Notes under the pieces: generated by a model
What the model saw: only the letters and a program-made list of their open reading frames with translations
Databases searched by the model: none
Told to the model about the DNA's origin: nothing
Origin: Macrostomum lignano
Lineage: Eukaryota
Assembly (NCBI GenBank): GCA_002269645.1
Contig: NIVC01001738.1
Span: 1-52,462, forward strand
DNA length: 52,462 nt
Direction: 5' to 3'
In this document: positions 12,481 through 52,462 of the stretch, piece by piece
How positions within the stretch are numbered: the first letter of the stretch is position 1
Layout: each line of letters starts with the position of its first letter
Program-made: the position numbers and the translations under genes

Positions 12481-13475
12481 TTACTTTAAGTAGAGCATTA
12501 CGGTATGGTTTAATAACTCTCTACACTGCTGCGCGGTCCTCCTCACCCGCGGTGGGGAAGAAATCAGCTCGTCTCGTGTCCCTGAGGTACCGGGCGATCG
12601 GCGGTATGCTCTCAGGCATGCAAACGTCGGAGAGAACCGGGTTTGGCCCGAGGTGAGTGAGCCTGCCCCCCCTGGGGAAAACTGGGCAGTGGCAGATAAA
12701 GTGCTCGGCGTTTTCACTGCCTGAGCGGCAGAAGGGGCACCGCTTCTCAGGTACCTGGCCCTGAAGGAAGCGGTGACGAGAGAAGCAGCCTACGCAGTAG
12801 GGCTCTACGCAGGAGGGGGAGGGACAGGGGACGGCAGTACGGGATTGCCTGCAATTCCAAGTGTCGTAACACCTGCGGAGATGCTCGGAATCAGCCCAGC
12901 GCTTAACACGGGAGTTGATCACCGAGGCGGGGATGGGGCCCCTGGGCCCGGCCCCAGCAGCGCGCCGGCGGAGCCAGCCTTGGCCAGCAGGTCGGCGCGC
13001 TCGTTGCCGAGGAAACCAGCAGATCCATCTGAGCTCCACCTGGTTGCCTAGCGCAAGCCCGTTGAGCTGGGCGTTGCAGTCCAAGGCAGATCTGGAGCTG
13101 GTGGTGCTGCGGCAGAGGGCCCGAAGGGCTGCCTGGCTTTCAGAGTGAAATATATATTTCCGACAGCTGAGCTGCCTTCGGCGCAGCTCTGCCGCGCAGG
13201 AGCTGATGGCAAGCATCTCGCTCCGAAAAACACTGAAGTTGAGTCCAGTTGTGCTGGGAGTAGCTCCACACCGCTTCTCCCTTGAAGAAGATGCATGCTC
13301 CGAAACCTGGAAGACCATGCCTCATTGAGCCGTCAGTGTAACAGTGGACTTCAGAATCGCTCCAGCTGTCACTCGCCTCGTGTCGAGGCTGAATGGTGAC
13401 CTTATACCTCTGGCTCAAGAGAAGGGTGGCTGAGATCGAGTCCGTGAGGATGTTGCGCCCGCAATCAGCAAACAT
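12481..13475 (-). mobile_element. 5'-truncated non-LTR retrotransposon fragment with RNase H and C-terminal CCHC (I/R1/Loa type)
   Basis: RNase H motifs CYTDGS..GFGACI, SVFRSEMLAI, IFHSESQAALRAL and VELRWI are followed by CPFC...HFICHC, spread over frameshifted ORFs 13140-13475 and 12521-13318. Confidence 0.85.
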
Positions 13476-31415: not shown

Positions 31416-41512
<10,097 letters not shown>

Positions 41513-44328: not shown

Positions 44329-44870
44329 AGTAGTAGGGGAAATGTGGACTCTGCCGCAGGAATTTCCGTGGGAAAACCACGGGCCTGTAGTGTGTAAACA
44401 TAGCGCCTATGTAAATGCATTGGTGGACTCTGCCGCAGGGAAAGCCACGGAATTTCCATGGGGTGGGGGGTCGGAGAGCGAAATATACGGGCTTTTCATA
44501 TTACCGATTCCAGAACCAGAATCGGTTCGAAGCTTTTCATATTGTCTGTTCCGTCTTCATAGTCGGTTCCAGAACCGTGATCCGATTCTGGAATTCGGTT
44601 CGAGAAATTTTCTCGATCCTTTGTCGTATTTCTATAGAAACGAAAGGACGAATTTGAAATAACATTTCAAACATTTCAAAAGAATACTAGTTTCTAGATT
44701 TTAGATAGACATGTTTTTATCCTTTAAGAAGTAGACAAAAATAGAATAGAAAAATTCGACGCTTTTCATTTTCCTACTCGATCTTCAATGAAAAAAGCCG
44801 AATAGAGCTCTATGTAAATGGATTGGTGGACTCTGCCGCGGGGAAAGCAGCATAAGTTCCTGGGAAGCCC
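44329..44870 (+). repeat. Candidate left terminal inverted repeat region of the Polinton
   Basis: Starts AGTAGTAGGGG; contains three GTGGACTCTGCCGC motifs, a roughly 40-bp direct repeat (44407 and 44810) and a CCGTGG-GAAAA-CCACGG hairpin (44366-44382). The partner end is not in the window. Confidence 0.5.
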
Positions 44871-45429
44871 AAAACTGATTCTCTAAAAATAGTAAAAAAC
44901 TTCTCTAGTGTACATTAGCCATAATTAATTGAGAATTGGGTGAACCTGGCTTCCGATCTCCACAATATTTAAACTTTGTTGGCAGTGGGAATACATAGGC
45001 CTATGTTCATGAGTTCCTCCGCACTTTAGTACGAGTCTCGCAAACTGGACTGAATTTGTTGTGAAAGTGAGCTTGCAAAGCGCCGTTTATTGCCTTGTTA
45101 TTGTTTTTCTTGATACTGCTGATTTGGGCGCGGGGAAGTGGGGTGCAGGTCTGGGGTGGAGGTCTTTAAAACTAACTGATGCACGCGACGGGGGGAATGT
45201 TATCAGTTTTATTATTATTATTTCTCAATAACGGTAAGAAAATAATTAGTGCATACACATATGTAACGTTTAAACATATCTGTATGTGTACATATAGGCG
45301 ATATTGCCTGGTGATTTGGATATAAGGACTGAAAAATTCTACTGAGCCATTAAAATATATTTTGTTGAGATTTAAACGGACTTCGAAATTTCAAATTTTC
45401 ACAAAAAACCCTTGATTAAATTTTAAACC

Positions 45430-46341
45430 ATGAGCCATTCTCGGTGCCCATCCTACGTTCATGAGGTGTGTGTCACCTGCAATATTAGTATGCTCGGTGG
45501 ACTAAAGCACCATGTAGCGAATGAAGGCTGCAGTGTCACCCGATGGCTACTATGCCATGAATGCCAGTCCGTTGAGCTCTTCACCGTTAGAGGCCAAATC
45601 AAAAGGCATAAAAATCATTCGACTGTTAACTGGAGCTCTGCTGAGGACCGCGAGCAGGCACGCATTACTGCTCTGGAAGTTGCACGTCAAGAGGAACGCA
45701 ACAGGGCGGCAGAACGCATTCGAGAGCCGGTGAGCACTTTGAGTCAAGTTATCACGAGCTTATGCGGCCGAGTAACGAACACTGGTGACCAGCCCAACGC
45801 CCAGCCTGCTGCTGCTTCTGCTGCTCTACTCGACGGTGATGTCGGAGCTCCCCTGCTTGATGCTGCTGATGGAGGTGGCACCCCTGACTTCGAGCTGAAT
45901 GAGCTGGACACCGCTTTCTTCGAGAACCTCGATGGTGAGCCTGAAGCACAGGAGCAGCAAGAAATGCAACAGCAGCAGCAGCGGCGTGCAATCCCTGTTC
46001 CCGGAAAAAATATGGAGCGTGCCAGGATGCTGGCAGAAGTCAGCCTGTCCGACGTGATTCGCGATATGGACTCAGGCCCTGCGCCTCCACCACCGCCGCC
46101 ACCGACTGAGGTTCAGCCTGCGGTCGAAGTCAGCCTGTCCGACCTGATTCGCGATATGGACTCAGGCCCTGCGCCTCCACCACCGCCGCCACCGACTGAG
46201 GTTCAGCCTGCGGCCGCTAATGAAGTGCAGCAGCCAGCACCTCTCTGCATCCAGCTGGTTCTGCCCAACAGTGTTACGGGTGAATATTGGATTGACTTGG
46301 GAGGGGCTTTCCGTATTCGCCTGAGCAATTCTCAATTCTAA
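45430..46341 (+). CDS. Element-encoded 303-aa protein: N-terminal Cys/His zinc-finger-like motifs, acidic and Gln-rich middle, duplicated 30-aa Pro-rich unit
   Basis: Uninterrupted intronless ORF in AT-rich flanks. Motifs CVTC..LKHH and CHEC-x14-HKNH, DFELNELDTAFFENLDGE, and a 90-bp duplication at 46036/46126. Confidence 0.7.
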   Translation: MSHSRCPSYVHEVCVTCNISMLGGLKHHVANEGCSVTRWLLCHECQSVELFTVRGQIKRHKNHSTVNWSSAEDREQARITALEVARQEERNRAAERIREPVSTLSQVITSLCGRVTNTGDQPNAQPAAASAALLDGDVGAPLLDAADGGGTPDFELNELDTAFFENLDGEPEAQEQQEMQQQQQRRAIPVPGKNMERARMLAEVSLSDVIRDMDSGPAPPPPPPPTEVQPAVEVSLSDLIRDMDSGPAPPPPPPPTEVQPAAANEVQQPAPLCIQLVLPNSVTGEYWIDLGGAFRIRLSNSQF

Positions 46342-47119
46342 ACTAATAATTCTAATGTACCAGTCGTTAAATATTAATTTAGCAACATTTTGTGTTGAAT
46401 TAAATTGCGAGATGCATGATTATCCGTATATTGAAAAAGTGAATAATGTTTATTTTTCTTTTCAACATCTCATTGCTATTTTTAAAGTTCATATTTATGC
46501 AGGCAATGCGCGTTGATCAATTGCAAGCTGTGCTTGGGTGTGAATGCAGATTGGGTTTGATTCTGGTTGGGTTTGTAATCTCCTTCTTTAACTTGTGCTT
46601 CTAATAATGTAGCGTATCATTGCATTTTTAAAATATAAGTTTTAAAGCGCAATGAAGCGCAGAATTTTGGAAAAGTTTTCAGCTTTGAGTTATTTTGAAT
46701 TATTTTTAGAATTCGTTTCATAAGACCCTTTTATTAAACCCATTATGAGACCCCGAAATTTGGCACGTAACGACAAGACCCGAAGTACAACTTTCGAAAA
46801 TATGTACACTTAATACGAGCGTATATCCACAAATTAGGGATTTAAATTTACTTTTGCAAGAAAAAATAATTTCACAAATATGTATTTCAGCAAATTTCCT
46901 CCTCTAATTCTCATCGAAAATGCTCTAAGCCGTGTCATCAACCGAACCGAGATGGCTTCTTCGAGAGACACTTCATCATCATCATCAGCAAGTGATCGGC
47001 CGCTTGAGTCTACCAATTTTGCTATCGAAATCGAACCAACCAGTGAGTCAATCCAATGTGATTAGTAAAGCCAGTAAAGTAGACTCTTCCCTCTATAAAT
47101 ACAAGCAAAAGTAGTCACG

Positions 47120-47650
47120 AAACCCGATTCCCGATTCGCCGATTCACCGATTCCCGATTCACCGATTCACCGATTCACTGATTCCCGATTCACCGATTCC
47201 CGAATCGCCGATTCACCGATTCACTGATTCTCGATTCACCGATTCACCGATTCCCGAATCGCCGATTCACCGATTCACTGATTCTCGATTCACCGATTCA
47301 CCGATTCCCGATTCACCGATTCACCGATTCACTGATTCCCGATTCACCGATTCCCGAATCGCCGATTCACCGATTCCCGATTCGCCGATTCACCGATTCA
47401 CTGATTCTCGATTCACCGATTCACCGATTCCCGATTCACCGATTCCCGATTCGCCGATTCACCGATTCCCGATTCCCGATTCCCGATTCACTGATTCCCG
47501 ATTCACCGATTCCTGATTCGCCGATTCCCGATTCACCGATTCCCGATTCGCCGATTCCCGATTCACCGATTCCCGATTCGCCGATTCCTGATTCACCGAT
47601 TCCCGATTCGCCGATTCCCGATTCACTGATTCCTGATTAACCGATTCCCG
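47120..47650. repeat. 7/8-bp compound satellite (CCGATTC with CA/CG/C spacers) inside the element
   Basis: About 70 tandem CCGATTC-type units ending about 75 bp before the PolB ATG. Confidence 0.93.
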
Positions 47651-47724
47651 CACCATAATGAGGTGGAATTAGGATTATGATTTATAAATTTTAACTGTCG
47701 AGTGAAACGCGTACACCCAACAAC

Positions 47725-50700
47725 ATGCTAATTCATGCAGGCATTCAATTCAGCTCGGCTATTCACGCTAGTGCGCATGATGACACGCTGCAGGTCAGAC
47801 GCTTCACTCCAGCATCAAGAGGTCTCGAGCCATTTCATTTTTTATCATCAACGAAGTTTGCAGTGCTACAGGCTGTTGAGATGAGATTCGATTCATCCGA
47901 GAATAAATCTATTCGAGCGCAGCTCAAGTTCAACATCAGAATGGTGAGAATCAAGGAAGCTGCGGTAATCAATGCAGAAGATAAGTGGATCGCATGCGGT
48001 CTTGAGCTTCTCTCTGATCTAAGAGATTTTGAATTGTGGTGGTTGCAGCAGTTTTCTGAGCTGGAACGCAAGATTGATGCCTACAATTCAAATGGGAGCG
48101 GTTGGATGTTGAGCAAATCAACTATTTTGATCTGTGCTCTGCCCTCACTGATCGCATTCGCTACTATCGTGGACGATGCGCGAATTTTCTTTGCCCAATC
48201 AGCTGGCCGTTAAGAAGGCCATAATCAACCCACCGAGCGATGGAAACAATTGCTTTCTGTTTGCCTGTCTCGCTTACCTGCACAACAGAGATCCAGGTGT
48301 GATGAAGTCTTGCCATCGACTAACAACTTACAGCAGATGGTTGGATGAAATCGATCTGAGCGGCATCGCACTACCAGTCGCAATTTCCGATTTAGACGTT
48401 ATAGAGGAAAAGAATTCCGAAATCTGTTTCACAGTTTTTAGCTGGGAAGATGATGAGGCCTATGTCATTCGCCAGCCTCTTCCTGGGATTTGTGCCTCTC
48501 GCAAGGTTATTCCTCTACTCTTGCTTCGCAACTCCAGCTCCGATGATGCTGATGATGATGATGGTGGTGATGAGAATTGTGGGACTGGACACTGGTGTGC
48601 AGTTTCGAACCTGGACCGGCTCCTGAACAGCAAAAAAGGTCTGAGGAATCGCAAATGGTGTGAGAAGTGCATTTCTCCGTTTCGATTCCAGGAAGAGTTG
48701 GAGCAGCATCGAGACAGCTGCAATCCTCAACTGAAACCAGCCATCATGGAGCGCATGCCTGATGCAAGTAGCAACACAATGCAGTTCATGGCTTGGGAAA
48801 AGACAATCAGTCCCCCATTTGTTGTCTACGCAGATTTTGAAGCTCTGAACACCCCACGTGAACCAGTGAAGCCTGAAAGAGAAGTTACTGTCACCAAGTT
48901 AACTGAGCATGTACCTGTAGCTGCTGGCTACATTGTTATTCCAAGAGAGGGTATGAGCAGCAAAATTCTGAGGCCGAGTGAGGATGTTTTCCTCTGCAGC
49001 GGACCCAATCCGAATTCTGTCGTGAAACAGTTTTTGGCCTCACTCGAACGTCTTGCTCGTGAAGTTTATGGTTGGAATACCGAGTTTAGTCATCAGATTG
49101 CTGACAGAAACAGTGATGACAACAGGCGCAGCTTTCAAGATGCCACACAGTGCTATTTATGCAATGCAGTGTTCATTTCATCTTCTGACAAGCACTGGGA
49201 TCACGACCACCTCAGCGGTGAATACAAGGGTGCTGCCTGCGCTTCGTGTAACAAGCTTGCTCGGCTGAAACGGCGATTTTTGCCAATAGTTTTCCACAAT
49301 CTTCGCGGATATGACCTGCATTTGATTTTCTCAACTGCGCTGGGTGACATGACTGGTTGGAGGGTGAGCGTCATCCCCCAAACTGCTGAGTCGTACCTCT
49401 CCATGAGGGTCGAGTTCCAGATTGATGAGTATGAGAAAGATGGCGTAAAAAAGCCCCTGTTTTTCACGCTACAATTCATCGACTCACTGCAATTCCTACA
49501 CAGCAGTCTTCTCAACTTATTAAGAACTTGCCGGAGGACAACTGTCCCATCACTAATGCGATGCGATCAAAGTATCCAAATCTCTCAAGCGATGTACTGT
49601 TTAGTAAGGGAGTTTTCCCGTATGATTATCTCTCGAATTTGAATGCGCTTGATGATCGCCAACTACCAAAAGTAGAAAGCTTTTTTAACCGACTCACCAA
49701 CAGCCACTGTACCGAGGCGGAGTATCGGCATGCGCAGAAGGCCTGGACTGAATTCGAATCTACAACATTGCGCGATTACATGCTCTGCTACTTGGAGCTG
49801 GACATCAGGCAACTAGCAGATATCTTTGAAGGGTTTCGAAGGCTGAGTTTGCAGGAAGACAAGCTAGATCCGGTGCATTTTGTGTCAACTCCAGGCTATC
49901 ATTCGCTTCTGCACTAAAGTCTTCTCAAGTCAAGATCGAACTGCTAACTGACCTCGAGATGTATAAAATGTTTGAAAAGGAATTCGGGGTGGAATGTCTT
50001 TTGTCAATGTACATCATGTCCAGAGCGAAAGTAGTGATGATGATAATGAACCAGCAGGTAGGAGTTTACTGGCTGTTGATGCTAATAACCTTTATGGTCA
50101 TGCGCTCACAATGCCCCTACCTGTTGGGCTTTCGCTGGCTCAGTCAAGAGGAGCTGTGCTCTGGTCCGAGTGCCGCTTTCTTTCCCTGGATGATGACGCT
50201 CCAATCGGCTACCTTGTCGAAGCGGATTTGCTCTACCCAGCCGAAATCCACACGGCAACGGAGGATCTTCCATTCGCCCCAGAAAAAGGTGTCCGAATTT
50301 CGAAGAATTTCCGCAGTACATGCGAGAATTATGGGTACTGCTTCAACATGACAATGATCATTCTCATCATCATCAGCAGCAGCAGCCCGACGCGAACACG
50401 ACTGAGAATCCTACCGTTGCGCGCTACCGTGGAGTACAAAAATTAATGCTCACATGCCACAACAAGTTTTCCTATGTACTGCACTCGTCTGCTCTCCGAT
50501 TCTATCTATCGCACGGAATGAAGTTGCATGGGCTCCACAGGATGATCGAATTCAGGCAAGAACCTGTCTTCGCGGACTACATTAAGATGAATAGCGAGAA
50601 GCGCTCTATGGCGAAAAATGATTTCGAGAAGGATTTCTATAAACTGAAAAATAACTCCCTGTTTGGCAAAACAATGGAGAACGTGCGCAAGCGGCGGGAC

Positions 50701-51471
50701 ATCAGAGTGTAGTGACAAGAAAAAAGCCAAGACTGTTTCTTCTCAACCAAATGTCGCATCATTCACAATCATTACGCCGTCACTCAGCATCTTTGAGCTT
50801 CAAAAGCACGAAGTAACTCTTGATCGCCCAATCTTCATGGGCAGTGTGTTCTAGATCGCTCCAAGATCATCATGTATCGACTTTACTATGACAAAATAAA
50901 ACCCATGCTAGAATTCCGTGATGGAGCAAGAGTTCGAGTTTGCGGTGGCGATACAGACTCGTTGTTTTTGAGCTTAGAGAACCTTAGTTTGCAGAGAGAA
51001 GTGCTGCCAATCCTGCATGCCGAAGGCCTCTTGGACACCTCCAATTTTTTCACTAATCATCCTCTCTTCTCGAATCGGCTAAAGGCCAAGCTAGGCTGCA
51101 TTAAAGATGAAGCTGGTGGACTGCAACAGATTGAGTGGGTGCTGCTAAGGCCCAAGCTCTATTCTTTCCTCGCTGAAAGCTCGGCGGCATGCAAAGCAAA
51201 AGCAAAAGGCATCCAACGAAGCGTGCTGAAGAATGAAGTCTCCCACGACGACTACGTCAAGATTTTCAAGGGGGCTTCAAAGCTGTCGCTCACTGTTCGT
51301 CGAATTGGAAGTGAGAAACATCGCGTTTTCACCATTGAGCAACGTAAGCTCGCTCTCAGTATCTGGGAGGACAAGCGAGCGTGGACTGGCTCGAACTCAA
51401 GTCTTCCGTTCGGCCACTTTCAGCTGTTAATCAGGGGTAGTCCGAAAAGGACAGCGGACTGCTTAGAGTGA
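47725..51471 (+). CDS. polB: Protein-primed family B DNA polymerase (Polinton type) with terminal-protein-like region, vOTU protease, zinc finger and endonuclease VII-like insertion; split by about six 1-nt frameshifts
   Basis: In order: NGSGWML; KKAIINP..DGNNCFLFACL; GHWCAVSNLDRLL; CEKC..F..LEQH..C; ExoI VVYADFE; CYLC..DHDHLSGEYKGAACASCN; ExoII FHNLRGYDLH; FIDSLQFL; KGVFPYDY; ExoIII YLELDI; motif A DANNLYG; motif B KLKNNSLFGKTMEN; motif C GGDTDS; LRPKLYS; KAKGI; EDKR. Confidence 0.93.
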
Positions 51472-52186
51472 TGCTTTGCACATCTGTGTAACCTTGGCGT
51501 TGAAATTTATTGACTTTTACTTATGTACTCCATGAATTGTTTCTGTGGTTTAATTAATCTGAATGATGATGATGATGATAATGATGGATGATGATGATAA
51601 TGACAATGCTGGAACGAATAGAGCCAATTCAGTTAGTTACATATTTGTAGTCTCTAAGCAACTAACTAACTCAAGTAACATTTTCGAGTTGAGTTGTTCC
51701 AGATTTATTTCAATACGAACTTGTGAAAGCCATGTTGGAATAATTTGCGTCATATTGGTCTGGCTTTCCTCTTTTTTACTATCCTTGAATTTTTGCACAA
51801 TTGAATGAACTGAGTTACTGTCCTTTTTTATCTTTGCTAGCTTTGCTACTCATATTTTTTGTAACCATTATCCAATGATTATCTGAAAAATATTTGCTTC
51901 CTTTTTCATTTCTGCTAGTTCTTGTTCGTTTTTGTCTTAGCAGTGCATAATCTGAGTGATGGGTGTGCTTTTTTTTCTTGAGTTGGTGGTGGTCTGATTA
52001 AATTTTCTATACTCAAACTAATATTGCGATTTCAGTTTGAAAATAAAGAAAAAGTCGATCGAAGTCTGATTTTCAGGTATATTGATTAAAATGCACGCAT
52101 CTTAATACGTGGTATATGCATGCAAAATTATTATATTTTGTTCAGCTGTCGTCTTTTTATTTAATTGTTGAAACATATGGTTATTA

Positions 52187-52462
52187 TTAGCACAGAAAAC
52201 GGACAAGCAAGGAAAAGTCGGAAATTAGCATGCTCATTGTTTTTGCACCACTGAGAACAAATGAGCCATTGTGAAAAAGCAGGCATTTGCAGAAGCTTAG
52301 TTTGCAGATCAAAGCAGAAAATGATTCTGGCTCATATTGAGCACTTGGTAAAGTGTTTACAAGATTAGCGAGGGGAAGGCTCTGCACAAGTCAATCTTCC
52401 ATGAGCAGTAATAGTTTTAATCCGCACATGCACAGCTTTGATGAGGCAGCAGTTGAGCAGGC
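52187..52462 (-). CDS. Diverged TATA-binding protein (TBP)-like ORF, C-terminal repeat; 5' part beyond the window, one frameshift near 52380
   Basis: PLANLVNTLPSAQYEPESFSALICKLSFCKCLLFHNGSFVLSGAKT aligns to TBP IRLEGL..SYEPELFPGLIYRM..PRIVLLIFVSGKVVLTGAK. The adjacent frame upstream gives VRIKTITAHGRL, matching FKIQNMVGSCDV. Confidence 0.75.

Follow-up and report, generated by a model that had tools for sequence, protein, structure and literature searches.

A divergent TATA-binding protein gene in the Polintons of Macrostomum lignano and a variant TATA-like box before their genes

Few surfaces in eukaryotes are as conserved as the DNA face of the TATA-binding protein (TBP). What, then, is a strongly diverged TBP gene doing beside the DNA polymerase of a Polinton, and which promoters, if any, does it read? 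The gene was met at the end of a 52,462-nucleotide stretch of Macrostomum lignano DNA (the window), which is an entire contig (G000:C1738). We find that the gene belongs to the Polinton, is under selection and recurs in every Polinton family that we sampled in this genome, and we propose that its product may switch on part of the element through a TATA variant.

The window copy and its intact sisters

The contig end at position 52462 falls inside the TBP gene. What the window retains is a minus-strand frame of 67 amino acids (52187..52390) containing the motifs YEPESFSAL, LLFHNG and VLSGAK, from which a sequence-only reading had recognised a TBP C-terminal repeat. This is borne out by a PF00352 match (E 2.5e-8; 34.1 bits, where the cut-off is 22.9) with all three motifs in frame: the stretch equals the end of an intact 187-aa ORF of sister copies, that is, the second TBP repeat and C-terminal helix. 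The frame closes just upstream of 52390, and comparison with the sisters places the matching residues of the truncated middle of the gene (52391..52462, minus strand) in other frames. The gene had also been described as convergent with the protein-primed DNA polymerase (pPolB) at about 700 bp, and the last pPolB frame indeed ends at 51471, a distance of 715 nt. The AT-rich gap between the two genes (51472..52186) differs between subfamilies and is not conserved; on the TBP strand an AATAAA stands at 52156-52161, after the TBP stop.

The polymerase itself, a type B enzyme joined to an endonuclease-VII-like domain (47695..51471, plus strand; PF03175 E 6.1e-7, PF02945 E 2.7e-7), is split over several frames in this copy. 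The element begins with a left terminal inverted repeat (TIR) of 135 bp (44329..44463, plus strand), which starts AGTAGT and matches, inverted, the right ends of sisters L017, L024 and L027 at 96-98.5%. Between TIR and polymerase lies a left-end ORF with a 304-aa frame (45430..46341, plus strand), found in sister copies too. It is preceded by a TATA-like site near 45321 and has 90-bp repeats within; a Pfam search with it gave no match. These repeats (46036-46216) vary in number among copies, and a short-period tandem array occupies 47115-47640, between the left-end ORF and pPolB. In the host flank, on the minus strand, we noted an ankyrin-repeat ORF (38693-39538; PF12796 E 6.9e-21) and, at 12521-13321, a weak zf-RVT match.

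A DNA search with window positions 50500-52462 returned at least 41 matches, of which 23 span the full query (the window included), and 40 of 337 candidates were scored. The two-repeat TBP ORF is intact and free of introns, with 187 codons, in 10 of 14 sister loci (PF00352 76.3 bits over two stretches, E 1.6e-21). The earlier description of an intronless gene therefore holds for the sister ORFs but not for the window copy, which is frameshifted, cut by the contig end and not intact. In copy G000:C1545 the TBP ORF lies between 135-bp TIRs about 16.5 kb apart, within the Polinton size range of 15-20 kb. A 6-bp target-site duplication is a criterion for Polintons/Mavericks; at the flanks of the one copy with both ends, five of six bases match.

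The gene order of this family (family 1) runs from TIR through left-end ORF to pPolB. On the opposite strand and directed towards pPolB come a PC4-like gene, an integrase with chromodomain, a putative penton gene, a basic ORF and a putative major capsid gene, continued by protease, ATPase, two unassigned ORFs, an exonuclease-like ORF and finally TBP. The polymerase (PF03175 E 4.5e-9) and integrase (PF00665 E 1.6e-7) are well matched, the adenain-like protease lies barely above its cut-off (PF00770 E 2e-4), and the packaging ATPase is a P-loop ATPase with weak Pfam matches, a relative of which on metagenome contig L079 matches Pox_A32 (E 9e-4). Two ORFs of about 440 and 270-330 aa stand in the expected positions and are conserved across families; going by size and position, we call them putative major capsid and penton, and they had no match in Pfam, NCBIfam, PDB or phage sets. 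No RNA polymerase gene was seen in the 16.5-kb element. The named homologues, 78-98% identical, belong to Macrostomum lignano. An OTU-like N-terminal PolB domain gave no Pfam match here; Starrett 2021 detected theirs by structure prediction.

The PC4-like coactivator/ssDNA-binding gene (PF02229 E 3.7e-6; L017:7565-8332 and L072:2471-2788, both minus) is present in family 1 and in a second family, family 2. The exonuclease-like ORF (L024:8416-9258 and L072:631-1512, both plus) has a predicted RNase T/DEDD-like fold (TM 0.62-0.66; Maelstrom lead 0.88). In both families it lies always immediately upstream of TBP and overlaps it, running stop-free over the first 106-110 TBP codons in family 1 and over 128 in four of five family 2 copies. 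Between subfamilies, L024:9200-9500 is 90-100% identical per 100 nt to L062, L065 and L066 until TBP codon 90-110 or so; beyond, identity falls to 60-82%, then to about 50% behind the gene. Synonymous divergence follows suit, with dS at least 1.1 from codon 110 to the end, as against 0.06-0.8 before it, in all but one near-identical pair. Both changes suggest recombination with its breakpoint between the two TBP repeats, which would have united the structural and polymerase arms.

Divergence, selection and spread of the Polinton TBP

Could the gene still be the host's? Family 1 proteins share 25-29% identity with host TBP and 23-26% with a host TRF-like protein, both of which are encoded at separate loci. 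The host TBP core (L029-L031) and the TRF-like gene (L035-L037) have one open frame each, at three loci each. In a tree of 42 rows the near Polinton TBPs (families 1 and 2; all Polinton TBPs are hereafter called vTBPs) form one clade with 100/97 support, apart from cellular TBPs, and a quick-method tree of 148 rows (133 of 144 background matches used) is concordant; the 42-row tree, where long branches meet, allows one or several origins of the Polinton TBPs. The fold is that of TBP: besides the PF00352 match, an AlphaFold2 model (pLDDT 89.5) forms a saddle that aligns with solved TBPs (Foldseek E 5.8e-14, TM about 0.8). The sequence-only reading had judged the copy far too diverged for host TBP, and on identity, clade and location this stands. 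In fact, the separate clade and the position inside the TIRs rule out a host TBP/TRF paralogue, the family 1 ORF being intronless and grouping with neither host protein. A chance ORF was likewise rejected.

dN/dS is 0.14-0.38 over 36 pairs among nine family 1 copies, and by this codon comparison the gene is under purifying selection. Divergent Polintons had been fetched as intended TBP-less controls, and all seven families sampled in the genome contain a TBP-like gene, so that no TBP-less Polinton was found to serve as a negative control. In family 2 (ATPase about 41-46% identical), a TBP of 198-201 aa follows the exonuclease-like ORF in five of five copies and is about 35% identical to that of family 1. 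In five distant families (ATPase 30-35%) a TBP-like ORF lies on the polymerase side in seven of ten copies; the other three are cut by a contig end, or the fetched stretch is without that arm. Four of five distant representatives match PF00352, three of them above cut-off; the one that was modelled folds as TBP (pLDDT 83.5, Foldseek E 3.4e-10), and near and distant profiles match each other (hhalign 95.9%). The distant proteins had no protein relative at E 1e-8. The pPolB-TBP neighbourhood thus recurs in many copies and families.

These data bear on the thought that we are looking at a recently captured, decaying and functionless retrocopy of host TBP or TRF. A broken window copy, four of 14 sisters without an intact ORF and a host TBP core that is itself intronless would all suit such an origin, but the low identity to both host proteins, the well-supported separate clade, a dN/dS far below 1 and the presence in all seven families do not. 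Selection and distribution refute it, and its chances are negligible. The earlier suggestion of captured cargo is right in that the gene is element-borne and understated in that the gene is old, has been kept by selection and turned up in each family sampled: it is a Polinton-encoded TBP, a real, selected and long-standing accessory gene.

Several observations extend this picture. Distant vTBP ORFs (L084:7257, L100:7340, L096:2996, L092:7101 and L081:1348) lack an ATG ahead of the first strand and all open at the identical codon, where a pyrimidine tract is followed by AG; for these reasons they are probably spliced. In distant families a deoxynucleoside kinase (PF01712 E 4e-19) stands beside vTBP, and a dUTPase (PF00692 E 3e-32) was also found; the Pfam sites are L100:6092-6751, L100:494-1159 and L081:2213-2647. 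Outside this genome, metagenome contig L079 pairs a divergent TBP (1471-2022, plus; PF00352 E 1.4e-12) with a Polinton-type packaging ATPase (3-698, minus) in divergent orientation; the metagenome scan gave two loci with the same match. Several unnamed proteins from outside the genome fall within the near vTBP clade, and nine short unnamed TBPs (P0024, P0032, P0083, P0116, P0122, P0123, P0132, P0142 and P0144) share a change of Asn159 to Thr; judged by sequence, these are candidates for Polinton TBPs of other hosts. Scans of viral contigs with A1, P0142 and P0024 gave no relative, an Atlas search with P0024 gave generic TBP clusters only, and a PF04665 scan of the genome gave nothing.

DNA-facing residues and a shared promoter-like box

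What might such a protein read? We numbered residues by the yeast positions of Table 1 in PMC12529657. Family 1 retains N69, V71, F190, F207, E186 and E188; it has replaced F99 by Pro, F116 by Tyr, V122 by Ser, T124 by Cys, N159 by Thr, V161 by Thr and P191 by Ser or Thr. Several of these changes recur across the 22 element rows: F116 has become Tyr, V122 Ser or Thr and N159 Thr or Ser; F190 and F207 are kept, and Pro stands at F99 in 20 rows, the other two being unplaced. The earlier remark that both intercalating Phe are kept is therefore correct for the second repeat, but in the first repeat of the sister copies Pro and Tyr stand in their place. The canonical set of four Phe and two Asn is thus incomplete, with F190, F207 and N69 kept and F99, F116 and N159 replaced. 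The acidic stirrup is preserved: E188 together with an acidic residue at 186 is found in 22 of 22 non-host rows (E186 in families 1 and 2, Asp or Glu in distant families), and the acidic C-terminal stirrup of TBP is the contact for TFIIB (PMC12529657).

The elements themselves contain a recurrent box. In the right arm of family 1, TTAAGAA occurs seven times in sense and once in antisense orientation, against 0.7 expected from 200 shuffles; the counts are those of each of three near-identical copies and therefore amount to one observation. The full family 1 box is YTTAAGAA, with C at the first position in five of seven (L024). It stands 41-46 nt before the integrase ATG in three mutually dissimilar versions of the intergenic sequence, and upstream of penton (45 nt), ATPase (56-57), orfA (51), the exonuclease-like ORF (57), TBP itself (64-79) and the basic ORF (about 148). 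The putative major capsid gene has a longer spacing (103-166 nt; 103-109 in family 1), and family 1 protease, orfB and pPolB have no box within 160 nt. The PC4-like gene of family 1 and the left-end genes have host-like TATA sites, the PC4-like one canonical.

Other families vary the theme. Family 2 boxes read YATAAGA or CTTAAGA, starting with C or T, and the family 2 TBP gene has a canonical TATA, TATAAAAG. In the distant families the box is TATAAG and starts with T, which the search pattern imposes by construction; a search for CATAAG gave a single site in each copy of one distant family, and no ORF follows it. In two families unseen when the pattern was chosen, TATAAG occurs seven times in sense, once in antisense and 1.8 times by expectation, and five, zero and 1.2 times, respectively. 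The common core is TAAG, with G in place of the A of TATAAA. Five representatives together have 31 boxes, of which 16 stand 40-60 nt ahead of an ATG; the background is 2.4-3.5% of positions, and the distance window was set after family 1 had been inspected. In the two held-out families the count is seven of 12. Host genes look different: upstream of histone H3 and small heat-shock genes, TATAWA occurs in 14 of 26 regions, TATAAG in one and TTAAGAA in two (far upstream), in a small control of 26 distinct regions from 60 loci that includes near-identical alleles.

Protein and box may be linked through one residue. P191 favours T at the first TATA position (PMC12529657); it is Ser/Thr in family 1, Asn in family 2 and kept in the distant TATAAG families. 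Loss of P191 thus tracks boxes that accept C, which fits a vTBP reading the box, although the link amounts to about one evolutionary event because families 1 and 2 are sisters.

The boxes might instead serve RNA processing, or mark the 3' end of the upstream gene, with vTBP playing an unrelated role, for example at element ends or in chromatin. Several of them do lie at the end of the preceding ORF, and the distant vTBP ORFs open at apparent splice acceptors, so RNA processing does seem to occur in these elements. Yet the spacing follows the downstream ATG, the vTBP box stands midway through the exonuclease-like ORF and the integrase box is intergenic; moreover, the box resembles a TATA variant, and an ordinary AATAAA already lies behind the vTBP stop. 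We hold this reading to be very improbable.

A possible late-gene switch and its relatives

The proposal that we favour, as probable if far from certain, is that the viral TBP drives Polinton late genes through its own variant TATA box, much as herpesvirus ORF24 does. Host TBP would first read the host-like TATA boxes of the TIR-proximal PC4-like and left-end genes. vTBP would then bind the variant box before the genes for integrase, packaging ATPase and putative capsid proteins and before their neighbours; the acidic stirrup that it retains would let it recruit host TFIIB and RNA polymerase II. In family 1 the vTBP gene itself has the variant box, so that positive feedback could follow. We infer promoter function of the box, its binding by vTBP, TFIIB recruitment and early/late timing; the labels early and late derive from gene function. 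The common promoter-like box thus lends support to the earlier idea that the protein steers element transcription. A complex prediction for vTBP with the 172-aa exon-encoded part of host TFIIB scored 0.01, informative neither way, and the contigs of three presumed-RNA runs and one run of unspecified kind cover element and host flank alike.

Part of the evidence weighs against this proposal. There are crystals of plant wild-type TBP on DNA with the G(-26) or the T(-30) variant singly (PDB titles 1qn5 and 1qna), so host TBP may read TATAAG. DNA bending by vTBP may be impaired, since one Phe has become Pro and Asn159 Thr/Ser, and herpesvirus ORF24 needs all four of its Phe. Host TBP might then read the boxes while vTBP acts as a decoy or repressor that dampens host or early genes, by sequestering TFIIB or TBP regulators or by occupying TATA boxes without transcription start. 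The crystals show that a host-type TBP accepts one change at a time, G at position 6 or T at position 2; one host small heat-shock promoter reads TATATAAG; and the loss of one Phe and one Asn from the DNA face of vTBP, with the stirrup kept, would suit a decoy. The family 1 box, however, departs from TATAAAA at up to three positions together, the altered DNA face shows conservation, not drift, from family to family, and box position 1 follows the state of P191. We consider a decoy unlikely, while granting it real weight.

A further possibility, less likely still, is that another element protein reads the late promoter box and vTBP is the scaffold of a small viral initiation complex. Candidates for the specificity factor are the PC4-like protein, the left-end ORF and the exonuclease-like ORF: the first is encoded in families 1 and 2, the last always adjoins vTBP there, and ORF24 is active only in a six-protein complex (PMC12529657). 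Distant families, though, have vTBP and box, and 20 stretches of them gave no tblastn match to the PC4-like or exonuclease-like genes.

If the favoured late-gene model is generalised, one can envision a broad lineage of animal Polintons with a one-protein late switch, in which a bare vTBP co-evolves with a family-specific TATA variant and uses host TFIIB and polymerase II; we put this at somewhat short of an even chance. Such a switch would parallel the herpesvirus late system while being independent of it and much simpler. By what means Polintons regulate capsid and packaging genes, and whether animal Polintons go through a true viral cycle, is to our knowledge an open question. vTBP and a defined box of 6-8 bases make late-gene control testable in Macrostomum lignano, a laboratory flatworm, and with seven natural pairs of TBP and box in a single genome one could see how TBP specificity gets rewired. 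If true, these pairs are a natural set of altered-specificity partners, and Polintons would have a staged viral programme.

How does vTBP compare with known systems? It shares the two-repeat saddle of eukaryotic and archaeal TBPs (PF00352) and differs in being encoded by a mobile element, in having no N-terminal extension and in its low identity to host TBP. TRF2/TLF and other animal TBP paralogues are divergent TBP folds that, like vTBP, have lost intercalating Phe; the host TRF-like protein, unlike vTBP, is a separate gene with another pattern of change and groups with cellular TBPs. Giant viruses (Nucleocytoviricota) also encode the fold, with Foldseek matches in BFVD down to E 4e-11, but at 8-20% identity to vTBP these are weaker than the cellular matches. 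Most giant viruses with a TBP bring their own RNA polymerase.

With the adintoviruses and Polintons of PMC8502044 (Starrett 2021), the present elements have in common TIRs, a PF03175-type pPolB (the Alpha class, by definition in that paper), an integrase with chromodomain, an adenain-like protease and a packaging ATPase. The sequence-only reading did not know TBP as a described Polinton gene. This needs partial correction, since the Fig. 5 legend of that paper names a TBP-like gene for at least one element with an adintovirus-like PolB, as does the preprint (10.1101/697771); we found there no analysis of that TBP or of its spread, residues or promoters. On these three subjects we found no paper about Polinton TBPs in the open full-text collection searched.

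A close parallel is the TBP of beta- and gamma-herpesviruses, exemplified by KSHV ORF24. Both are virus-type TBP folds with a more polar DNA face, and in both, for Polintons at sequence level, late genes stand behind a variant TATA and early genes behind host-like promoters. According to PMC12529657, the ORF24 late box is TATTWAA, and ORF24 keeps four Phe, has no acidic stirrup for TFIIB, contacts polymerase II directly and requires five partner proteins. The Polinton vTBP, compared here at the level of fold only, is by contrast a bare core of 187 aa that has kept the stirrup. If binding holds, vTBP would work like a viral late-promoter TBP without being a member of the herpesvirus system.
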